DNA of 64,000 bases from the IMG/VR virus record IMGVR_UViG_3300031998_000009, positions 64,001 to 128,000 of that record; one strand, given 5' to 3'. How positions within the stretch are numbered: position 1 is the stretch's first letter; every line of letters starts with the position of its first letter. Of the stretch, positions 9,652 to 55,200 are shown one piece after another. Source of the DNA: a virus. Taxonomy: Duplodnaviria; Caudoviricetes. The position numbers and the translations under genes are program-made. The notes beneath the pieces are model-generated. The model saw only the letters and a list, made by a program, of their open reading frames with translations, had not been told where the DNA came from and made no database searches.

Positions 9652-10248
9652 TCACAATTCAGATTTTACACTATATTGGGCAATTATTGTTTTGGCTGCT
9701 TCGTATTCCTCACGACTTACAATGTATGGAACATACCCAAAACCACCTTCATTATTAATGTCGTTATATTCTTTCATTCTGCGTCGTGCTTCTTCCCTTG
9801 TTGGGATGTCTTTCTGTGCTTCAGCTTTTACTATTGTTTCATTAGCTGCTTTGATTTTCTTTTCGATTTCTTCTGCTTGCTTTAATGTTCTAATTTCTTC
9901 GGCTTCCGGATCGCTACCCTCTTCAAGAACAGTCTTAAGAAAAGCTTCAATCTCTGTTGCACGTTCATCTGTAAACGCAATCTGTTTAATACCCCAGATC
10001 TTTTTGATTCCAGGCTTTACATCAATAATACGCCAGAAGTTTACATCCCGACAACTGTCAAACTTCTTACTGTCGATATAGGCAGTAAGCATTGCACGTT
10101 TGATAATTTCACGTTCACCGGTATTACAAATGTCCCCATCAAGGTTGACGATCTTATCCTGCACGAACTCTGTATATTCTGCCTCCAATGTTACTGTCCT
10201 ACCATCTGTAAGTTTCCATTCGTAACGCTTCATAATATTTACCTCCAT
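9652..10248 (-). CDS. hypothetical protein
   Basis: long co-oriented ORF. Confidence 0.6.
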   Translation of the reverse strand: MEVNIMKRYEWKLTDGRTVTLEAEYTEFVQDKIVNLDGDICNTGEREIIKRAMLTAYIDSKKFDSCRDVNFWRIIDVKPGIKKIWGIKQIAFTDERATEIEAFLKTVLEEGSDPEAEEIRTLKQAEEIEKKIKAANETIVKAEAQKDIPTREEARRRMKEYNDINNEGGFGYVPYIVSREEYEAAKTIIAQYSVKSEL

Positions 10249-21354: not shown

Positions 21355-21793
21355 TATCAATATTCTCCTTTATATAATTTAATACATTTTTAATGTCACG
21401 GTAATCTTGAATTTCATTAACATATTTTTCGTACAAGAAACAGGCTTTATTAAAATAAAACCCATTTTCCGGATATGTAAATTTAGATTTAATGAAATCC
21501 CGAATTCCTCCATAATAAGAATCAGAATTTTCAAATTCAGAAAAAACATAGGTAATATAGTCAATATGATCAATAATATAACTAGCGTCAAATAAGGTTG
21601 TCGAAAAGTCTATCTCGTATTTATCCTTATTAACAAATAATATATAACGGAATAAACCTTCAGAACAGTAATTTTCGTCTAACTGTTCTAATAACTCGTC
21701 ACTTAATGATGCTATATTTATATCACAATTTCTTTTTATTATATAGGATAAACTTTTCTTTATACCAGGTAGATAGTTAGATACATCTACCAT
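21347..21793 (-). CDS. hypothetical protein
   Basis: start MVDVS follows AAGGAGG. Confidence 0.6.
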   Translation of the reverse strand: MVDVSNYLPGIKKSLSYIIKRNCDINIASLSDELLEQLDENYCSEGLFRYILFVNKDKYEIDFSTTLFDASYIIDHIDYITYVFSEFENSDSYYGGIRDFIKSKFTYPENGFYFNKACFLYEKYVNEIQDYRDIKNVLNYIKENIDND

Positions 21794-21826
21794 ATTTATT
21801 CCTCCTTCCAAATATATTGTATATAT

Positions 21827-21855
21827 AGTATAACACAAAAAACACAAAATGTCAA
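21827..21855 (-). promoter_or_regulatory. sigmaA-type promoter
   Basis: TTGACA-17-TATACT. Confidence 0.85.
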
Positions 21856-21878
21856 GTAGTCATTCATATTGTTAAAAT

Positions 21879-21910
21879 AAAAACTCCTATCTACTAGGAT
21901 AGGAGTTTTT
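21879..21910 (-). terminator. intrinsic terminator
   Basis: AAAACTCCTATC/GATAGGAGTTTT. Confidence 0.8.
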
Positions 21911-21917
21911 GTATAAT

Positions 21918-23180
21918 TTATACAAGTCTTGTTTGCGCTTTAATAGGACCCCATATACAAGGTTCGTTACAATGAATGTTATTACATTTCATTTGTAATT
22001 CACCATCTCTAAAATGTCGTTTTAGTTGTCCTAACATATAATTAGATTTATCCCAATGTCTAGTAAATCTAAATAGATTATTTTTTATTGTTTCAAATGT
22101 TTCTAACTGAACTCTTCCACATAGCCTTTCATCACATTTACTCATAAAATCACATATGTCACCTGTTTCTACAACATCTACCATTGTAGCAATAGGATAT
22201 GTTTCTTTTACTTTATCCAGATCGTTTTTCCATTCTTGAATAACAGGTTCTGAATACTGTAAGATTTTAGGAACATAAAATTGTGGGTTACTTGTTCCTT
22301 CAAAACACATATAATGATGTAAAGTTCTATGTCTTTGCTGTTGTGCTAAATCAGCAAAAGAAGATCTGTATTTAATAAGATACACATCGTCATAATGTTC
22401 TTTGGCTTTGTCTATATCATAGCATGTTTGTTTAGCAAGAAATCTAAATTTCCATCCTTTTTGTTCAACAATACATTCAGAATATAAACGTGCTTCTGTT
22501 ATTGTATTGTATAGTTCCGTTATGCAGTCTAATAATTTACTATTAAAAGGTGTTCTTTTAAGGTCTAGACTAGCACCGCCATCATCCCAAACACCTATAT
22601 AACTTTTACACCACTGTCTTATATAGCTCCACATTCTTAATGAAGTTGTATATGCCATAGTGGTTGTCGGTGCAAATACACTTAAAACATATCTTGCATT
22701 TTCTAATGTTAGTTTCTCCCTTAATTTATCATTAATAGGAATATTCCACTTTTCTGCATACGTAGCAATGGCATCATTAAATATTTCTTTCCATTTTTCA
22801 TACAATTCATAATTCTTGAAATACTTCTTATGTGTTTCTTCGTCTCCGTTCATAACAGTATAACGACCACTTTTTTCTGACGTGTTGTAGAAACCAACAC
22901 TATTAAGAATCATAGCTGTCATTTTAGGAATGTTTTCAAATAGAACTGTTACAAAGGCATGGTCACTTATACTATGATGACCTGTGGAGGCAACACGTTC
23001 GAATCTAGCTAGTGCTTTTTTGTCATCCGTATATTTTGGGTCAAAATAATTAGAGTTAAGATAACATATAGATGCCATGGAACCTGAAAACTTTCCTAGA
23101 TCTTTAATGTTTTGTTCAGTTAAAGCAGTATAATTTGGATCAGTTACTTGATTCGGAGTTGCTAGAATTGTTAGTTTCAT
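21918..23180 (-). CDS. thyX: FAD-dependent thymidylate synthase-like protein (long form)
   Basis: GHHSISDH, SEKSGRY, ENARY, QRHRT motifs. Confidence 0.75.
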   Translation of the reverse strand: MKLTILATPNQVTDPNYTALTEQNIKDLGKFSGSMASICYLNSNYFDPKYTDDKKALARFERVASTGHHSISDHAFVTVLFENIPKMTAMILNSVGFYNTSEKSGRYTVMNGDEETHKKYFKNYELYEKWKEIFNDAIATYAEKWNIPINDKLREKLTLENARYVLSVFAPTTTMAYTTSLRMWSYIRQWCKSYIGVWDDGGASLDLKRTPFNSKLLDCITELYNTITEARLYSECIVEQKGWKFRFLAKQTCYDIDKAKEHYDDVYLIKYRSSFADLAQQQRHRTLHHYMCFEGTSNPQFYVPKILQYSEPVIQEWKNDLDKVKETYPIATMVDVVETGDICDFMSKCDERLCGRVQLETFETIKNNLFRFTRHWDKSNYMLGQLKRHFRDGELQMKCNNIHCNEPCIWGPIKAQTRLV

Positions 23181-23442
23181 TTGTTATTTCCTCCTGTTTA
23201 TGAGATTCACTATCTACTTTTATGTAAACATATTTAGAACAAAATGGGCATTTTCTTCTATAAGTGTTCACACCTTTTCCATTCACTACCGAATAGTCAA
23301 AGAACTCGACATAGTCTTCATCCTTCTCTAAAGCAGCTTCAAAGACACACCCACAAATTAAACATTCAAATCTATATGTATTCATATAAGATTTAGTGTT
23401 CTCTTGTAATTTATAAAGGGATCCATCTACGATGACTTTCAT
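23140..23442 (-). CDS. Zn-ribbon protein (MKV..G family)
   Basis: FECLICGCVFEA..CPFC. Confidence 0.6.
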   Translation of the reverse strand: MKVIVDGSLYKLQENTKSYMNTYRFECLICGCVFEAALEKDEDYVEFFDYSVVNGKGVNTYRRKCPFCSKYVYIKVDSESHKQEEITNETNNSSNSESSN

Positions 23443-23446
23443 AAGC

Positions 23447-23692
23447 TTACCTCACAAAATATTTAATATCCAAGATATGCTTTTCCACATTTTTAATATC
23501 TGCAAGATCGGACAAATCATAACTGACTCTTGCGTAGGCAACGAACATCGTGAATATAAAAGAACCTATTATCAATTCTTCGTAGTATTCTCCATCTGTC
23601 AACTCATTCGTTCTATATATAAATCGAATTATTTGTAGCATATAAAACATCCAAAAAATGATACGAAGAATACAAATTCCTAATGCTATCAT
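23447..23692 (-). CDS. small membrane protein
   Basis: two hydrophobic segments. Confidence 0.55.
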   Translation of the reverse strand: MIALGICILRIIFWMFYMLQIIRFIYRTNELTDGEYYEELIIGSFIFTMFVAYARVSYDLSDLADIKNVEKHILDIKYFVR

Positions 23693-24225
23693 TTTTTATA
23701 ATCCTCATATATTTTAGAACCTGTAGCACCTACCTGTCCTTGGTACTTTCCGTTATATGGATTATCAGCAGGTTTATCCATTCTTGCAAACACCAGCTGA
23801 CCTACTCTTGTTCCTGCTTTAATGTTTATAGCCCAGTTACTAGCATTAAATAGTTCGAGTGTAATTTGTCCCTCAAATCCTGGATCTACCCAACCTGCAT
23901 TCTGAATAAATAATCCTAATCTTCCAATAGAAGAACGACCTTCTACAAATGCAGTTAGATCATTAGGAAGAACAAAGTACTCTTGAGTGGTAGCAAGAAC
24001 AAATTGTTTTGGAAGTAAAATATATGATGTTTGTTTTGTGGTTGTGTAAGTTAAAGGTTCGTCTAATTCTATAATTCCACCATTAGGAACATCGGTTATT
24101 GTGCTGAATGAATCTCCGATAGTGATGTCAACACTTGCCGGCTGAATACTTTTATCGTCTGTTAGATTATGACATAGACCTTTATTCTCTATTAGATTCA
24201 TTAGTGTATTATCAGAAAGTATCAA
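23689..24225 (-). CDS. dcd: dCTP deaminase
   Basis: QPASVD, GRSSIGRLG, DPGFEGQITLE, YNGKYQGQ. Confidence 0.95.
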   Translation of the reverse strand: MILSDNTLMNLIENKGLCHNLTDDKSIQPASVDITIGDSFSTITDVPNGGIIELDEPLTYTTTKQTSYILLPKQFVLATTQEYFVLPNDLTAFVEGRSSIGRLGLFIQNAGWVDPGFEGQITLELFNASNWAINIKAGTRVGQLVFARMDKPADNPYNGKYQGQVGATGSKIYEDYKK

Positions 24226-43763: not shown

Positions 43764-44617
43764 ACACCTCCGGCAATATCAATATGGGTATTTAGAATCC
43801 AGTTATCAATAATCATTTGTTTACTGCTACCTTTCATCTGTAACTCAGACAGATGTTTACTAGTGTTTTTAATTATTTTACAGAATACTTCTGTATCTTC
43901 CTTGCTGCAATTTTCTAATAGATAATTATTACAACATAACATGATACATCTTAAATACAGTATTGGGTCAAACTTTTCGGATTCTTCATCTTTCCTTAAA
44001 TTTAGAAATGTAGATATTTTGAATTCATTAGCCAGATTAGCAGAACCTATGAATTGAATAAACTTATCTGCTAGATTATATAATTCTGTCACGTCTAGTT
44101 TGGAACAGTTCAGAACATCCTGTGGTGTACTACATATACTCTTTACAATATTTAATTCTTTAGATTTGAACTCTATCTTTTTTTCGTTTATAAAGTTTTG
44201 CAGGTCCGTTTGAGTATATGGATCCAGATAAAATACAGTTCCTCTACTAACAATGGTTCCTAAAACACTATTGATATCCTGAACGGTCATAATGAAATAA
44301 GAATCGTTTGGAGGTTCTTCTGTTACTTTTAGAAGTGCATTTTTAGAAGTAACAGACATACCGTCACAATCAAAAAACATATATAATGTCTTCTCTGTAA
44401 CTGTATATGAATTATATATTACTTCTCTTACACTATCTGCTTTAATATCACAAGGAACAAAGTTTGCCCCTAACTGTTTAGCAGCATAATCAGATATTAA
44501 CTTCTTTCCGGAACCTACATTACCTACAAGAATACTGAATCTAGGAAATCTTCCAGTTTCGACTAGATGGTTTATCTTATCTAGAAGTTTTGTTTGACCA
44601 CAAATATACATATTCAT
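43757..44617 (-). CDS. holB: DNA polymerase III delta'-like clamp-loader subunit
   Basis: GNVGSGKK, NALLKVTEEPP, TIVSRG. Confidence 0.78.
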   Translation of the reverse strand: MNMYICGQTKLLDKINHLVETGRFPRFSILVGNVGSGKKLISDYAAKQLGANFVPCDIKADSVREVIYNSYTVTEKTLYMFFDCDGMSVTSKNALLKVTEEPPNDSYFIMTVQDINSVLGTIVSRGTVFYLDPYTQTDLQNFINEKKIEFKSKELNIVKSICSTPQDVLNCSKLDVTELYNLADKFIQFIGSANLANEFKISTFLNLRKDEESEKFDPILYLRCIMLCCNNYLLENCSKEDTEVFCKIIKNTSKHLSELQMKGSSKQMIIDNWILNTHIDIAGGVC

Positions 44618-45639
44618 GCCTCCGAACAGAGTAAAATAAATGTGGACTCAATCATTGGTTTAGGTGTAGACTCCCACTTAATGCTATTATTCAGATTGAT
44701 CATTTCATTAAGAAGTGTTATAAAGAACTTAAAATCTGAATTATTATATTTGGACATTCTATTATCATAAAGATTAGGTATTTGAATAAATTCGAAAGAT
44801 CTACAAATATCATATTTACAAAGGTCTAGCACAAATGCATTGTAATTCTTGATAAACTGCTTTAGGTCCATACCATCTCTGTAAATAGTTTCAATTATAT
44901 TTATGACTGTTTTCTTATCCATCTTGCACAATGCGTCTGTAAGATCAAAAAGTGTATTATAGTCAACTGTTCCTAATGCTTTAACAACACTTTCCATGGT
45001 AACATCGTTAGAAAAACCTAATACTTTTTCCATAAGAGTAATAGCGTCACGCATACCGCCATCAGCAAGTTTTGCAATATAGCTAATTGCGTCTTCATTA
45101 TATGTATAGGAACATCCTTCTTTATTTTCCATTTCCAATATATACTTCAGACGTTTTGTAATACCGCTGTGAGATATTTTCTTAAAATCATATCTTTGTA
45201 CTCTTGATAGAATTGTATTAGGTATTTTTTGAGGATCTGTTGTAGCAAAAATAAATATGCTTGTAGGTGTAGGTTCTTCAGTTGTCTTGAGTAAACATTG
45301 CCATGAGGTATTGCTCAGCGAGTGGGCCTCATCAATGATATACACCCGATAGTCACAACCAATAGGCTTAAACTTCGAATCATCTATTAGTTTTCTAACA
45401 TCCTCTACACCACTATGAGAAGCTGCGTCTAGCTCTACAATACCGTTTCCATTATTATTGATATACTTTGCAAATAACCTAGCGTCAGTCGTTTTGCCAG
45501 TGCCGGCAGGTCCACAAAACAAATAAGAATTTCGAATTGATTTAGTTTCAATCTGATTCTTCAATATTGCTTTAATAACATCCTGTTCTACTACTTCTTC
45601 AAATGTGGCAGGTCTATACTTCACAGCTAATGTTGGCAT
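44614..45639 (-). CDS. dnaX: DNA polymerase III gamma/tau clamp-loader ATPase
   Basis: LAVKYRP, GPAGTGKT, ELDAAS, IIDEAH, TILSRVQ, GGMRDA. Confidence 0.93.
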   Translation of the reverse strand: MPTLAVKYRPATFEEVVEQDVIKAILKNQIETKSIRNSYLFCGPAGTGKTTDARLFAKYINNNGNGIVELDAASHSGVEDVRKLIDDSKFKPIGCDYRVYIIDEAHSLSNTSWQCLLKTTEEPTPTSIFIFATTDPQKIPNTILSRVQRYDFKKISHSGITKRLKYILEMENKEGCSYTYNEDAISYIAKLADGGMRDAITLMEKVLGFSNDVTMESVVKALGTVDYNTLFDLTDALCKMDKKTVINIIETIYRDGMDLKQFIKNYNAFVLDLCKYDICRSFEFIQIPNLYDNRMSKYNNSDFKFFITLLNEMINLNNSIKWESTPKPMIESTFILLCSEA

Positions 45640-45766: not shown

Positions 45767-45809
45767 AAATGTAAAAGCAGTATGTTTTTTCACATACTGC
45801 TTTTACATT
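45767..45809 (-). terminator. intrinsic terminator
   Basis: AAATGTAAAAGCAGTATG/CATACTGCTTTTACATTT. Confidence 0.75.
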
Positions 45810-46144
45810 TAGCTTTCATTTAAATATTCGATAAACTTTTTCATAACACTTTCAGGTAAAACATAATAGTTTTCACCGTCTCCAAAGTCAAATGCTAGTA
45901 TAGGATAGCGTTTTCCCATAGCGTAGCATTGTTCATCCACTTTTTCTAACCATTCTTTTTTAATAGAGAACGACTTCTTTTCTGTAACACAGGTCTTACA
46001 TTCGATTAAACAAGTATCACTAACCACATCACCTTTTAGAAAATCACTAGATCCACTACTTGTTTGAACCTTGGCACCTAGTTTTTTAGCGGTTCGTTTT
46101 TCTTGTTTATCACTATAATATCTTGTAGGTTTCTTTTCCATCAT
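45809..46144 (-). CDS. Hjc-like PD-(D/E)xK endonuclease / Holliday junction resolvase
   Basis: E..AK.LG..SGS..KGDV..LIECKT. Confidence 0.7.
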   Translation of the reverse strand: MMEKKPTRYYSDKQEKRTAKKLGAKVQTSSGSSDFLKGDVVSDTCLIECKTCVTEKKSFSIKKEWLEKVDEQCYAMGKRYPILAFDFGDGENYYVLPESVMKKFIEYLNES

Positions 46145-47241: not shown

Positions 47242-47317
47242 TGGTGTCCCGGAACAGAATCGAACTGTTGACACGGGGATTTTCAGTCCCCTGCTCTACC
47301 ATCTGAGCTACCGAGAC
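47242..47317 (-). tRNA. tRNA-Phe(GAA), CCA encoded
   Basis: cloverleaf, loop CT GAA AA. Confidence 0.95.
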
Positions 47318-47323
47318 AAATAA

Positions 47324-47407
47324 CGGAAGGAGAGGGACTCGAACCCTCGCACCTTACGGTCTAGCGGTTTAGCAAACCGTCCCCTTCACCAGCTTGAGCA
47401 TCCTTCC
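47324..47407 (-). tRNA. tRNA-Ser(GCT)
   Basis: cloverleaf with variable arm. Confidence 0.93.
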
Positions 47408-47411
47408 TAAA

Positions 47412-47483
47412 AGTGGATGAAGGGAATTGAACCCTCATTACCTGCTTGGAAGGCAGGAGTCTTAACCATTCGACGACATCCAC
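47412..47483 (-). tRNA. tRNA-Gly(TCC)
   Basis: CCTGC CT TCC AA GCAGG. Confidence 0.93.
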
Positions 47484-47487
47484 AAAG

Positions 47488-47561
47488 TCCTCACAGTAGG
47501 ATTCGAACCTGCGACCTACCGCTTAGAAGGCGGTTGCTCTATCCAACTGAGCTATGTGAGG
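47488..47561 (-). tRNA. tRNA-Arg(TCT)
   Basis: ACCGC CT TCT AA GCGGT. Confidence 0.94.
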
Positions 47562-47564
47562 AGA

Positions 47565-47972
47565 TTAGCTACAATTATGACAAGTGTAATGACTACCATC
47601 GATAAATAATTGTCCAGACCAATTTGTATGAACATTAGGTAAATATAATCTAAATGTATCGATTATCATTTCTTTTATTATAGATGTATTTATGCACTTA
47701 TCCATATAAACATTTGATTCGTATATAACTGTTCCATTCACTTGTTTATGGGGTAGTACCTCAACTCTTCCTCTCGGAAAATAGTCATAAGGAACAGGTT
47801 TACCATCTACGATATATTTGTTTTTTAATGTTTCCCAAGATTTCTTGTGAAGTAAGTTTGTCATAAAATATGGATCATTAGGATCAACTGGATCTGTTAA
47901 TGCTACTAGTTCGTTATTTATAACCCAAAATATTCCTTCACAAAGAACTTGTAGACTTTCATAAACTATCAT
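47565..47972 (-). CDS. hypothetical protein inserted in the tRNA operon
   Basis: YDYFPRGRV, C-terminal HYTCHNC. Confidence 0.65.
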   Translation of the reverse strand: MIVYESLQVLCEGIFWVINNELVALTDPVDPNDPYFMTNLLHKKSWETLKNKYIVDGKPVPYDYFPRGRVEVLPHKQVNGTVIYESNVYMDKCINTSIIKEMIIDTFRLYLPNVHTNWSGQLFIDGSHYTCHNCS

Positions 47973-48052
47973 TATTTATCATCCTTACCCAGAATACAGC
48001 AAGAATATAGAATTAATGTTATGAATACAGCTACAAATAAAATAACTTTCAT
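47972..48052 (-). CDS. 26-aa hydrophobic membrane peptide (not in ORF track)
   Basis: MKVILFVAVFITLILYSCCILGKDDK; AAAGGAGG SD; TAATG overlap with next ORF. Confidence 0.55.
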   Translation of the reverse strand: MKVILFVAVFITLILYSCCILGKDDK

Positions 48053-48080
48053 ATATTATTCCTCCTTTATGGAGAAGAAA

Positions 48081-48164
48081 TGGAAGAGATTGGATTCGAA
48101 CCAATGAAGCACATAGGCAACAGATTTACAGTCTGCCCCCTTTGACCAACTCGGGAACTCTTCC
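48081..48164 (-). tRNA. tRNA-Tyr(GTA)
   Basis: GCAGA CT GTA AA TCTGT, variable arm. Confidence 0.94.
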
Positions 48165-48177
48165 AAATTATATTTAA

Positions 48178-48310
48178 TGCCGGGTGAGTAGTTTCAACCT
48201 CACGCATTCCCGTCCAGAGTTACATAACCTTTTTAACGGAGTTGGTCCTCCGAATGTTCTGTCGTAGGGACTGTATTTTCTTTTCGACTTTTAATGCTTG
48301 TCTACCGACA
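48178..48310 (-). ncRNA. candidate tRNA-like structured RNA A (GGACCA-loop family)
   Basis: terminal stem TGTCGG/CCGGCA, T-arm-like hairpin, core shared with 49378-49571. Confidence 0.6.
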
Positions 48311-48320
48311 ATAAATATAA

Positions 48321-48395
48321 TGACCCTAACGGGATTTGAACCCATGTTTTCAGAATGAAAATCTGACGTCCTAGACCAGACTAGACGATAGGGCC
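48321..48395 (-). tRNA. tRNA-Glu(TTC)
   Basis: TCAGA TT TTC AT TCTGA. Confidence 0.92.
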
Positions 48396-48397
48396 GG

Positions 48398-48472
48398 TGG
48401 TTGTCGTGGTTGGATTTGAACCAACGAATAACGGCTTCAAAGACCGCTGCCTTTCCACTTGGCGACACGACA
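48398..48472 (-). tRNA. tRNA-Gln(TTG), CCA encoded
   Basis: GCGGT CT TTG AA GCCGT. Confidence 0.92.
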
Positions 48473-48480
48473 ATCACGAA

Positions 48481-48562
48481 TACTACCTGTGGGACTTGAA
48501 CCCACATTCCTTTCGGAACTGGTTTTTGAGACCAGTGCGTATGCCAATTCCGCCAAGGTAGT
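48481..48562 (-). tRNA. tRNA-Leu(CAA)
   Basis: CTGGT CT CAA AA ACCAG, variable arm. Confidence 0.93.
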
Positions 48563-48569
48563 ATAAGAA

Positions 48570-48644
48570 TCGGAATGACAGGATTCGAACCTGCGACATC
48601 CTGCTCCCAAAGCAGGTGATCTAGCCAAACTGATCTACATTCCG
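48570..48644 (-). tRNA. tRNA-Pro(TGG)
   Basis: CCTGC TT TGG GA GCAGG. Confidence 0.94.
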
Positions 48645-48769
48645 AATTGTGTCAACTCAGCTTTACCTCGCCATTAACGACCATTGTCACTTTTGCCGGC
48701 TACCATACTCGTAGCTTTGCTGCTTCTAAATAAGATAATTATAACGAGCAGCGGTTATAATTAAATTAG

Positions 48770-48853
48770 TGCTGCTGACCGGACTTGAACCGGTACGGTG
48801 TATCCACCGAGAGATTTTAAGTCTCTTGCGTCTGCCGATTTCGCCACAGCAGC
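48770..48853 (-). tRNA. tRNA-Leu(TAA)
   Basis: AGAGA CT TAA AA TCTCT, variable arm. Confidence 0.94.
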
Positions 48854-48861
48854 AAATATTA

Positions 48862-48933
48862 AGACAAGGGTGAGATTCGAACTCACGATCGCGGTGTTGC
48901 AGACCGCTGTCTTAACCGCTTGACTACCTTGTC
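48862..48933 (-). tRNA. tRNA-Cys(GCA)
   Basis: GCGGT CT GCA AC ACCGC. Confidence 0.93.
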
Positions 48934-49008
48934 GTTATGTGAATCTGTTTTGTATGTACGCCGATAATCGTTCTTTCAAAATTATTCGTGTAACAGATTC
49001 ACATAAAA

Positions 49009-49081
49009 TGGGATTGGACAGGATTTGAACCTGCGATCTGGGCTTTAGACGCCCTTGCCTTACCCACTTGGCTACAATCCC
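49009..49081 (-). tRNA. amber suppressor tRNA (anticodon CTA)
   Basis: acceptor GGGATTG/CAATCCC, D-arm GCC..GGC, anticodon arm AGGGC GT CTA AA GCCCA, T-arm GCAGG TTCAAAT CCTGT. Confidence 0.87.
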
Positions 49082-49084
49082 TAG

Positions 49085-49296
49085 TGGAACACCAGTACCT
49101 CTCCCTCTTGACCGATGTATTAACGAACTCCACCTAAATCCGTCCTGTAAGACCTAGTACAGAAAATATCATCTAAATATAACAGGCGTCCCTGCTTCCT
49201 ATTTAACCCATAAGTGGAGTAAGGTTTTACTGCTTACCTTCAAACATCGTCATCTAGGTCCGGATCCTAAATGATTCCAGGTAACTAGGATTACCC
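49085..49296 (-). ncRNA. candidate ~210-nt multi-stem RNA between tRNA-Thr and the suppressor tRNA
   Basis: nested helices TGGAA/TTCCA, CGATGT/ACATCG, ACTCCACTTA/TAGGTGGAGT plus hairpins. Confidence 0.6.
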
Positions 49297-49300
49297 TTGA

Positions 49301-49373
49301 AGCTGGATGACGGACTCGAACCCCCGACCTGCTGATTACAAATCAGCTGCACTACCAACTGTGCTAATCCAGC
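49301..49373 (-). tRNA. tRNA-Thr(TGT)
   Basis: GCTGA TT TGT AA TCAGC; one G.G mismatch in T-stem. Confidence 0.9.
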
Positions 49374-49377
49374 AAAG

Positions 49378-49571
49378 TGTCTGTCTATCCAGACTGTCAT
49401 AAGGCACTGCCACTTATGTTACCGTCTACCGTAAGCCTTATTCCCCTCTCGACGACCGTTAACGGAGTGGTCCATTCCGGATGTCTTGTTAAGGTACAAA
49501 CTCTTAAACCTTACTTTCTCAAGGTTATTTTATAGAACCGTTTGATATAAGTAATAAACCTTTCAGTTCTT
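49378..49571 (-). ncRNA. candidate structured RNA B (GGACCA-loop family)
   Basis: several hairpins; core shared with 48178-48310; 3' GACAGTCTGGATAGACAGAC. Confidence 0.6.
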
Positions 49572-49572
49572 T

Positions 49573-49648
49573 TGGCTCCCGTAGACAGACTCGAACTGCC
49601 GACTTGATCATTAACAGTGACCCGTTCTACCAACTGAACTATATGGGA
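49573..49648 (-). tRNA. tRNA-Asn(GTT), CCA encoded
   Basis: GGTCA CT GTT AA TGATC. Confidence 0.92.
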
Positions 49649-49652
49649 ATGA

Positions 49653-49726
49653 TGGGCTCTCTGGGACTCGAACCCAGGACCACCCGGTTATGAGCCGGAA
49701 GCGCTAACCGACTGCGCTAAGAGCCC
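49653..49726 (-). tRNA. tRNA(CAT), Ile2-like (Met not excluded)
   Basis: GGGCTCT acceptor, CCGG CT CAT AA CCGG. Confidence 0.88.
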
Positions 49727-49819
49727 GTATAAACTCCTACAAAAACAATGCATGGTTATCATTGAAACATCGGAGTTTGTGTTTTTTACATTTGAAAGAA
49801 AGGAATATCAAATGTCTGG

Positions 49820-49895
49820 TGGTGTGCCAACTGGGATTTGAACCCAGGACCCCTTCCTTAAAAGGGAAGTGTTCTGCCAGCTGAACTATTGGCAC
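49820..49895 (-). tRNA. tRNA-Lys(TTT), CCA encoded
   Basis: CTTCC CT TTT AA GGAAG. Confidence 0.93.
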
Positions 49896-50026: not shown

Positions 50027-50055
50027 ATTATAACACATTATTCAGATATTGTCAA
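50027..50055 (-). promoter_or_regulatory. consensus sigmaA promoter of the tRNA/ncRNA operon
   Basis: TTGACA-17-TATAAT with TG extension. Confidence 0.9.
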
Positions 50056-50624: not shown

Positions 50625-50656
50625 AAAAAGTCCTCCTAGTAACAGGAGGACTTTTT
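50625..50656 (-). terminator. intrinsic terminator
   Basis: AAAAGTCCTCCT/AGGAGGACTTTT. Confidence 0.8.
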
Positions 50657-53519: not shown

Positions 53520-54670
53520 CCATAAATTTCTTTATTTATATGATTTACAATTTTATCGTACACATCCTTATTTTCTGGATCTTTAAGAAATGGAATTAGT
53601 TTTGCTTGACCGTTTATCTTAATGTCTACCTTATTTCCATCTTCGTCTGTTCTGGAAAGTAGTTCACCTGTTTCCGGATCCAAAAACGTAAACCATGCAC
53701 CTGCTTTATTTATAATACCACTTTTAATTCCTAGATCAATGTAATCAATAAGTGGTTCAATACCGTGATCGTATGTTAAGGTATACGAACCTAACTTTCT
53801 ATCTGGCTTACATACCTTTGTCTTTGCAATGCTCATCATTACTTTATGTCCATATGGACTTTCGTGACTCTTTTTAACCTCATCGAACTTCTCATCAAAA
53901 GGTGTACCTTGTCTAAACATAGCACGAACAGAACAGACGTGTTTCCAACATTTACCACCTGGAGTTGTATATGTAGGTCCACCATAACCGGCATTAAGGT
54001 TATCTCTTACTTGATTTATACCTATTAAGGCACAGTTTCTTTTAGAACATATAAGTTCTACTTTTTTAGAGAATTTAGTTAAAGCTCTGGATATACCACC
54101 ATATGTAGAATCTTCAATGTCCTTATCCATTTCCTGCTGGGATACCATCATTCCAAGACTATCTATAACAGCTAGTCCAATTTCACCGGCATCAATAAGT
54201 TGATAGACCATATCAAATATTTCTTCAGCGCTCTGTGATTCTGGAGACATCATATAAAGGTCATCTACACAAACACCTAGTTTTTCTGCCCACTCATCAT
54301 CAAAAGTATTTTCACAATCAATCCACAATACTTTTCTAGGACCAGTTTCACGAAGTTCGAGTAAGTAACCGGATTCTTCTTTATTCAGTTTCTCTTTGTT
54401 TTCCAATTTATGGATTTTCTCTTCCCATTCCTCCTGGAATAGCTTTTGGGCATTTCCAGCAATATCGAGTGCTGTGGTTGTCTTACCTGAACTCTCTTCA
54501 CCAAAAAACTCAACAATACGTCCTCTTGGAATACCGCCATATAACATACGGTTTGCATTAGGACTACTAAATGGAATTCTAGCACAATTATGAATAATAG
54601 TACCTTTTGTGAAAAGTTCCATTTTGTACTTCTTGTTAAACTCCTTAAATAGTGTTTCTGACTTGGTCAT
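53516..54670 (-). CDS. recA: RecA/UvsX-like recombinase
   Basis: GGIPRGRIVEFFGEESSGKTT, VIDS, INQVR, TPGG. Confidence 0.92.
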   Translation of the reverse strand: MTKSETLFKEFNKKYKMELFTKGTIIHNCARIPFSSPNANRMLYGGIPRGRIVEFFGEESSGKTTTALDIAGNAQKLFQEEWEEKIHKLENKEKLNKEESGYLLELRETGPRKVLWIDCENTFDDEWAEKLGVCVDDLYMMSPESQSAEEIFDMVYQLIDAGEIGLAVIDSLGMMVSQQEMDKDIEDSTYGGISRALTKFSKKVELICSKRNCALIGINQVRDNLNAGYGGPTYTTPGGKCWKHVCSVRAMFRQGTPFDEKFDEVKKSHESPYGHKVMMSIAKTKVCKPDRKLGSYTLTYDHGIEPLIDYIDLGIKSGIINKAGAWFTFLDPETGELLSRTDEDGNKVDIKINGQAKLIPFLKDPENKDVYDKIVNHINKEIYG

Positions 54671-54681
54671 ATCATTACCCC

Positions 54682-55200
54682 TTAATTCGTTTTTGTAGGA
54701 GCTACTTTGGATAACTCCAATTCAGCCATTCTTCTGGATACTACCTTTTTAGCACTTTGTAGAAGTTCTGTAGCATAAGATACTTTTTGTTTGATTATAT
54801 CATAAGCACTTCCATATATAGTAGAAACTAATGTTTTATTCATAACAGCATTTGTTGCTACAGCTTTTCTATAACCTTCTGTACCTGCTGTTTCTGTATA
54901 AATATCGTTATAGTCTGTTGTTTTGGAAACATCAGACATATCCTGTTTAAGACCCAGTAGCTCTTGTTGTGTTCCACAGAAATACAAAAGAGCTGGTATT
55001 GTCATAATAATGTCGTCTAGTTCAGCATCCGTTATGTTGTTACTTCCACCATCCAATAATTCGAATACATACTGCACATACTGGTCTAGCTTATCACAAC
55101 ATTGATGAACCAGAGAGTCTACAATACTTCTTGCATACTCTGTATTAACATCTAATGTTTCCAATAGCTTTTCAAGTTCATCATTTGTTAATTTTTCCAT
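54682..55200 (-). CDS. helical hypothetical protein (recombination mediator-like position)
   Basis: lies between recU and recA. Confidence 0.5.
   Translation of the reverse strand: MEKLTNDELEKLLETLDVNTEYARSIVDSLVHQCCDKLDQYVQYVFELLDGGSNNITDAELDDIIMTIPALLYFCGTQQELLGLKQDMSDVSKTTDYNDIYTETAGTEGYRKAVATNAVMNKTLVSTIYGSAYDIIKQKVSYATELLQSAKKVVSRRMAELELSKVAPTKTN

Follow-up and report, generated by a model that had tools for sequence, protein, structure and literature searches.

Four anticodons in one tRNA gene of a T4-like rumen phage lineage: a candidate natural amber suppressor allele in a genome without TAG recoding

Suppressor tRNAs are thought to precede stop-codon recoding in phages, and their origin and tolerance in standard-code genomes have so far mostly been inferred from distant comparisons. 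The window analysed here, a stretch of 64,000 nucleotides of phage DNA, contains a tRNA gene with the anticodon CUA and thus raises the question of whether such a gene marks the beginning of recoding or has a different origin. A sequence-only reading of the window had proposed that TAG is being kept vacant in the course of partial or incipient amber recoding, and had suggested a comparison of coding density under different codes as well as a search for RF2 or aminoacyl-tRNA synthetase genes. The gene in question is located as follows.

49009-49081, minus strand: tRNA gene of 73 nt with anticodon CUA (ARAGORN cloverleaf, Rfam tRNA match and fold)

The full cloverleaf with anticodon CTA described from the letters alone is borne out by ARAGORN, by a match to the tRNA family (RF00005) with 47 bits (E 7e-7) against a threshold of 29, and by the predicted fold, which is a cloverleaf of -26.8 kcal/mol (z = -3.3); the plus-strand TAG at 49046-49048 is likewise seen. 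In the ARAGORN drawing, the 7-bp acceptor stem with G1-C72, the Gln-like D arm (a 3-bp D stem plus A13.A22), the A27.A43 mismatch and G32, all reported before, are accompanied by an extra C where the T and acceptor stems meet, which the earlier reading had missed. The discriminator position is occupied by A73, and the gene does not encode the CCA end. The anticodon loop (G32-U33-C34-U35-A36-A37-A38) has the hallmarks of an amber suppressor, with CUA in a 7-nt loop, U33 and a purine at position 37. Another hallmark, conservation of the anticodon among orthologues, is not found, with UCA, ACA and AUA occurring elsewhere. Having the lowest Rfam score among the 16 tRNAs of its cluster, in addition to G32, the A27.A43 mismatch and the extra C, the tRNA may be a poor decoder.

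ARAGORN labels the CUA form as tRNA-Pyl and the UCA alleles described below as tRNA-Sec. Neither label fits. A tRNA-Pyl would be recognised by a 6-bp anticodon stem, a 3-nt variable loop, a small D loop without G18G19, a single base between the acceptor and D stems and an atypical T loop, but the gene shows an anticodon stem of 4-5 bp, GG in the D loop, the linker U8 + A9 and a GGTTCAAAT T arm. A domain search of the genome, whose record is ~86% complete, returned no match to a PylS-type core domain. A tRNA-Sec, in turn, would have a long variable arm, a 6-bp D stem and 8/5 acceptor/T helices, as opposed to the short variable region and 3-bp D stem observed here; the extra C yields at most a U.C pseudo-pair. 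In an nhmmer search, used rather than a covariance model, two tRNAs of these same phages emerge as the nearest paralogues of the gene, namely tRNA-Gln(UUG) (E = 6e-5) and the neighbouring tRNA-Cys(GCA) (E = 8e-5). According to the general identity rules of aminoacyl-tRNA synthetases, U35 and A73 would favour Gln or Lys. Together with the Gln-like body, these positions would make Gln or Lys the most plausible residue to be charged, whereas the same rules argue against Cys, which would call for U73, and bacterial Trp, which would call for G73.

The gene is part of a larger unit, whose elements lie in and around the tRNA cluster.

47242-49895, minus strand: cluster of 16 tRNA genes (ARAGORN; the Rfam tRNA model also finds all 16)
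49082-49300, minus strand: non-coding spacer of 219 nt between tRNA-Thr and tRNA(CUA), 97-99% conserved among strains
50027-50055, minus strand: consensus sigma-70 promoter (TTGACA, 17 nt, TATAAT, with TG before the -10 element; 12 of 12 matches)
50625-50656, minus strand: hairpin resembling an intrinsic terminator (14 pairs, then a T run)

The cluster is embedded in the replication module, with the clamp loader gene on one side and the genes for an HD phosphohydrolase, a UvrD-type helicase and UvsX on the other, and all 16 tRNAs are located on the coding strand. The promoter, ~130 nt upstream of the first tRNA, is likely the start of the tRNA transcription unit, and the hairpin closes the unit upstream of it. 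Because of this arrangement, with a consensus promoter upstream and a terminator-like hairpin before it, the cluster appears to form a single early transcription unit, in which tRNA(CUA) is probably transcribed along with the remaining 15 tRNAs from an early promoter of host type.

The spacers flanking the gene show several features of their own. The 219-nt spacer is more conserved than nearby protein genes (~93-95%), with neither a significant fold (z = -0.26) nor an Rfam match, and no theta or HDV-like ribozyme adjoining tRNA(CUA) was detected with Rfam at E <= 1. The 75-nt spacer between tRNA(CUA) and tRNA-Cys (48934-49008, minus strand) contains a perfect 13-bp inverted repeat, ATGTGAATCTGTT ... 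AACAGATTCACAT, with a loop of ~36 nt. This repeat, which alignments show to be kept in strains G001 and L027, possibly marks a processing site. Moreover, the content of the cluster differs by cassette between close strains. Upstream of tRNA-Asn, Met(CAU) in the window (49653-49726) is swapped for Ile(UAU) in others (L001:5795-5874, L041:2304-2383 and L037:1485-1561), and the slot between tRNA-Cys and tRNA-Gln is occupied by Leu(UAA) in one set of strains and by Ser(UGA) in the other. HNH genes are found within the tRNA clusters of some relatives, and the clamp-loader gene, which encodes 341 aa in the window (44614-45639), reaches ~745-778 aa in several of them, with LAGLIDADG or intein-splicing domains in the longer versions (L028:8170-10407, L035:6406-8661, L034:2666-5002 and L041:6332-8411).

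The window comprises bases 64001-128000 of a source genome that is represented by a single 198,524-bp contig with 33% GC (~86% complete according to CheckV) and carries nearly all of its genes on the minus strand. Its sequence is present in public bovine and sheep gut runs. This phage is a large T4-like rumen phage that uses the standard code. Over the whole genome, the fraction covered by a greedy non-overlapping set of open reading frames is 0.90 under code 11 and becomes 0.91 once TAG is treated as sense, without any locally rescued block. Only two 10-kb bins gain density when TAG is sense, one at the tRNA cluster and one at the left end of the contig; the TAG-rich plus-strand frames at this end (genome 263-1033) are antisense to a 360-aa minus-strand gene running off the contig. 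Within the minus-strand open reading frames, no in-frame TAG was found inside a gene anywhere in the genome, late genes included, so that the earlier observation of long genes unbroken by TAG extends beyond the window. Each in-frame TAG is the terminal stop or precedes the true start, and several belong to a TAGGAGG Shine-Dalgarno motif. The candidates for amber-gated genes with an internal TAG were rejected, as they consist of upstream non-coding sequence or TAGGAGG ribosome-binding sites. Matches to release-factor or aminoacyl-tRNA synthetase families (PF00472, PF03462, PF00749, PF00579 and PF01409, the latter three covering the Gln/Glu, Trp/Tyr and Phe/Pyl-type synthetase cores) were absent from the ~86%-complete record, although such a gene could reside in its missing part. 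The genome is not TAG-recoded.

How strongly is TAG then avoided? In the window, no credible gene ends in TAG: the four TAG-ending open reading frames present were dismissed as antisense shadows or tRNA overlaps, among them a 141-aa plus-strand frame that is antisense to two minus-strand genes. The total avoidance claimed from the window does not hold for the whole genome, in which TAG terminates 8 of 268 minus-strand open reading frames. About seven of these are credible, including one of 274 aa, which in DNA of 33% GC is too long to have remained open by chance. Overall, TAG makes up 2-3% and TGA ~30% of the stops. The depletion itself is real, with 6 TAG stops out of 260 on the dominant strand compared to 17 out of 84 in unrelated gut or rumen phage loci of similar GC (p = 3e-7), and since TGA, which has the same GC content, is common, base composition alone does not account for it.

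Strain G001 (IMG/VR 3300028591_000148), which is ~93% identical to the window genome over 66 kb, provides a comparable span, and none of the 92 stops of the genes common to both is TAG. Where this can be judged, the TAG-ending genes of the window genome occur only in strain-specific insertions, as do most of those in G001, which suggests that they are recent imports. The comparison of accessory DNA rests on the following genes.

Window genome (G000), 54583-55017 and 140328-141152: TAG-ending genes
G001, 9805-10086, 21732-22043 and 23378-23776: TAG-ending genes

None of the TAG-ending open reading frames matches a Pfam or PHROG family, and read-through would add 1-14 residues to their products. 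In G001, whose orthologous tRNA has the anticodon ACA, TAG accounts for 6 of 137 stops. It accounts for 4 of 107 stops, pooled over the sampled regions, in family members without a CUA, UCA or ACA tRNA, whose embedded protein (encoded by a gene within the tRNA cluster) shows 52-62% identity to that of the window. The differences among the window genome, G001 and these tRNA-less relatives are not significant. Since TAG is equally rare in G001 and in relatives without the tRNA, its scarcity predates the CUA allele. The suggestion that TAG is kept vacant agrees in part with the depletion observed, whereas the tRNA is not its cause. Similarly, TGA is used freely in strains carrying the UCA form (6 of 15 stops in the sampled locus of L027), and orthologous TGA stops are kept. 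Given that G001, the tRNA-less relatives and the UCA strains show no such dependence, stop usage is not tuned to the allele of the respective strain. The sole event that fits the direction proposed earlier concerns a single gene.

45809-46144, minus strand: Holliday-junction resolvase gene (phrog_2002, E = 4e-31)

The stop codon of this gene is TAA in the window genome, with a second TAA two codons further on, and TAG in G001, L041, L027 and L037, making this TAG-to-TAA change an observation with n = 1.

The most revealing feature of the locus is the variation of the anticodon itself. In other strains, reached via the protein gene embedded in the tRNA cluster, an orthologous tRNA occupies the same slot between tRNA-Thr and tRNA-Cys(GCA). 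Its body and flanks are 96-100% identical, and its loop differs.

49047-49050, minus strand: hypervariable loop positions 35-32 (alignments, contigs from public runs, tree and Poisson test)
Window and run X1: loop 32-38 GUCUAAA, anticodon CUA
L041: loop 32-38 ACAUAAA, anticodon AUA
G001 and run X3: loop 32-38 ACACAAA, anticodon ACA
L027, L042, L037 and L038 and runs X4 and X5: loop 32-38 ACUCAAA, anticodon UCA

Among the eight assembled strains or contigs, only one carries CUA, the other seven having UCA, ACA or AUA; runs X1 and X2 possibly represent the source sample of the window itself, and X3 possibly that of G001. Exact-pattern scans with the anticodon or the loop left free retrieved only the G001 record among viral and metagenome contigs. 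The bases A36-A38 (49044-49046) are invariant, and because they never vary, every allele reads a codon starting with U. The gene is limited to a close clade, and relatives at ~55-60% protein identity do not have it. A tree of the surrounding 790 nt, calculated without the loop, has the topology ((window, L041), G001, ((L027, L042), (L037, L038))), from which it follows that UCA is ancestral and stable on long branches; it has been kept across ~5-7% divergence. The changes proceeded in the order UCA to ACA to AUA to CUA, with the last step also involving A32 to G and C33 to U.

The pace of these changes is remarkable when compared to their surroundings. Within a subtree spanning 0.027 substitutions per site, the four sites at loop positions 32-35 have accumulated five substitutions, with 0.11 expected (P ~1e-7), and the excess persists when the triple change is counted once, giving three events (P ~2e-4). 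In the same strains, none of the 39 anticodon positions of 13 other shared tRNAs varies, as opposed to two of three here (p = 0.003). This loop-restricted change is too fast for neutral decay, indicating selection on the anticodon loop itself. A mutator of the DGR type was also considered and is unlikely, given that no reverse transcriptase and no second copy of the tRNA were found in the genome.

Anticodon loops vary elsewhere in this phage family as well. U33 is nearly universal in tRNAs and present in all 16 tRNAs of the window strain. In other strains of the family, a change from U33 to C33 recurs with the anticodons kept, affecting tRNA-Asn (L027 and L042), tRNA-Cys (L037, L038, L029 and L033), tRNA-Arg (L029), tRNA-Met (L032 and L033) and tRNA-Leu-UAG (L033). 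One possible cause of this recurrence is pressure by enzymes directed at anticodon loops. The more distant phage L033 additionally contains a 74-nt tRNA (L033:5166-5239) that ARAGORN calls Ser(CGA), with no long variable arm and the loop CACGAAG, including A33. It resembles tRNA(CUA) in its architecture: an additional C follows the T stem, the Gln-like D stem has 3 bp, and position 73 is an A. Its stems differ in sequence with their pairing kept, and in a MAFFT alignment its anticodon arm was shifted against the others.

Taken together, these results incline us, with slightly better than even confidence, to view the CUA form as a natural amber suppressor allele that arose recently and costs little, in a phage tRNA that switches its anticodon, and not as incipient recoding. 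The locus harbours a real tRNA gene of one T4-like rumen phage lineage with UCA as its ancestral anticodon, whose loop was rewritten stepwise in one sub-lineage, leaving only the window strain with an amber-reading form combined with the canonical U33. As TAG was nearly unused as a stop across the family before this allele arose, an amber-reading tRNA would cost little, namely 1-14 extra residues on a handful of accessory proteins, and it is because the family had nearly abandoned TAG stops that the allele would be tolerated. If charged by a host synthetase, the tRNA would act at most as a weak natural suppressor and would not be part of a recoded gene set; its transcription, its charging and any suppression of UAG are putative. 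Some observations sit less comfortably with this interpretation. Besides the low score and the non-canonical features of the tRNA, A34 and C33 in the intermediate alleles are odd for working decoders, and the CUA allele has been seen in one sample only. It is tempting to speculate that the switching itself was under selection, leading from the opal-reading UCA form through ACA and AUA to a CUA form that reads amber and has U33 again, which would have settled on a nearly vacated stop. The UCA form would be costly where ~30% of the genes end in TGA, and weak sense intermediates with A34 and C33 (ACA and AUA) would avoid the dangerous UUA and CCA forms. We regard this selective scenario as unlikely, albeit worth stating.

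The chances of incipient or partial recoding, in which the suppressor would be the reason for the vacancy of TAG and the phage would stand one step before the appearance of in-frame TAGs in late genes, appear slim to us. Low GC, TAG depletion and a suppressor tRNA in combination correspond to an intermediate stage of the published route (Borges et al., bioRxiv 10.1101/2021.08.26.457843), and incipient recoding would agree with the low GC content of 33%, the share of TAG stops of 2-3% next to ~30% TGA, the lack of TAG among the 92 stops of the core common with G001 and the loss of the resolvase TAG on the very terminal branch on which CUA arose. However, the last of these is a single change, and TAG is equally scarce where strains or relatives have no CUA tRNA. 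Moreover, in-frame TAG is absent from all genes, about seven genes still end in TAG, and CUA is confined to one of eight strains, so that the recoding originally proposed finds no footing in these data. Strains with UCA do not avoid TGA either (6 of 15 stops in L027), and no recoded relative is found among 15 related loci, each sampled over 5-20 kb. An even lower probability attaches to the notion that the gene is a redundant copy in decay, on its way to becoming a pseudogene, with an anticodon that drifts and has arrived at CUA by accident. While the lowest score in the cluster, the mismatches, the extra nucleotide, the unconserved anticodon and the absence of the tRNA from more distant relatives are what decay would produce, neutral changes should cover all 73 positions, and the body is conserved as much as or more than the flanks. 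The loop changes also far exceed the neutral expectation, and UCA has been retained across ~5-7% divergence.

More weight, though still well short of an even chance, may be given to the idea that the RNA resembles a tRNA without taking part in decoding and serves, for instance, as a decoy or substrate mimic for a host enzyme acting on anticodon loops. Positions 32-35 of its loop would be under diversifying selection, or the loop would have shifted to the nearly vacant codon at which it does least harm. Change that is confined to the loop and far above background in an otherwise conserved body would be accounted for in this manner, as are the A34 and C33 alleles, which are atypical of working decoders, the recurrence of C33 in other tRNAs of the phage family and the L033 homologue, which combines the same odd architecture with the loop CACGAAG and A33. 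There is also precedent for phage tRNAs countering anticodon nucleases through loop changes (PMC10264068). Nevertheless, the nuclease or other partner remains putative, and the ancestral UCA loop has been stable over longer branches. The window allele, furthermore, has regained a canonical U33-CUA-A37 loop, suggesting that decoding matters, and the invariance of A36-A38 fits a normal tRNA reading UNN codons. Selection on the loop would be compatible both with such a role and with the shift of a stop-reading tRNA from TGA to the vacant TAG.

The laboratory suppressor mutants of phage T4 (psu alleles) arise by point changes in the anticodon of a tRNA cluster gene that create a stop-reading tRNA, which is tolerated. 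The present case is similar in that it involves a T4-type tRNA cluster and a point change generating a tolerated stop-reading tRNA. Unlike the psu alleles, the variants described here are natural and multi-step, cover two stop and two sense codons and affect a tRNA whose sense identity is not fixed. Other phage tRNAs escape the anticodon nucleases of the host by changes in the loop that keep the anticodon and preserve decoding (van den Berg et al. 2023, PMC10264068). They share with our system the concentration of changes in the anticodon loop, including the recurrence of C33 in several tRNAs, whereas here positions 34 and 35 change as well.

A third comparison concerns the gut phages that have recoded TAG to Gln, such as the crAss-like, Lak, Garnet and Topaz phages and others (bioRxiv 10.1101/2021.08.26.457843; PMC9523058, Peters et al.). 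As in these phages, a phage tRNA with CUA and a Gln-like body is found in a low-GC genome from an animal gut in which TAG is rare as a stop. In contrast to them, there is no in-frame TAG, the density under code 11 is normal, TAG ends some genes, RF2 and synthetase genes were not found, and CUA is not conserved among close strains. The published route leads from low GC to stop depletion, then to a suppressor tRNA and finally to in-frame stops in late genes (bioRxiv 10.1101/2021.08.26.457843). Of the features that precede recoding, a low-GC standard-code phage, TAG depletion and a suppressor tRNA are present here, and no recoded relative was found among the 15 loci of 5-20 kb each. A further parallel is provided by the standard-code relatives of recoded phages in the model of Borges et al., which likewise combine low GC, a preference for TAA, TAG as the rarest stop and a suppressor tRNA with a lack of recoding. 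The window genome differs from them in that only TAG is depleted, TGA remaining at ~30%, such that GC content alone is no explanation, and in that its suppressor arose in place by mutation of the anticodon and was not acquired.

While a phage suppressor tRNA(CUA) is in itself of a known kind, the natural series of four anticodons in one phage tRNA is new. In natural strains that are ~93-98% identical, this one tRNA gene occurs with four different anticodons, of which two read stop codons, on a fixed background of stop-codon usage. These strains show that TAG can become depleted long before an amber suppressor arises and that the presence of a tRNA reading a stop codon, in this case UCA, need not reshape the use of TGA. 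The allele series also offers simple material for testing the function of such tRNAs.
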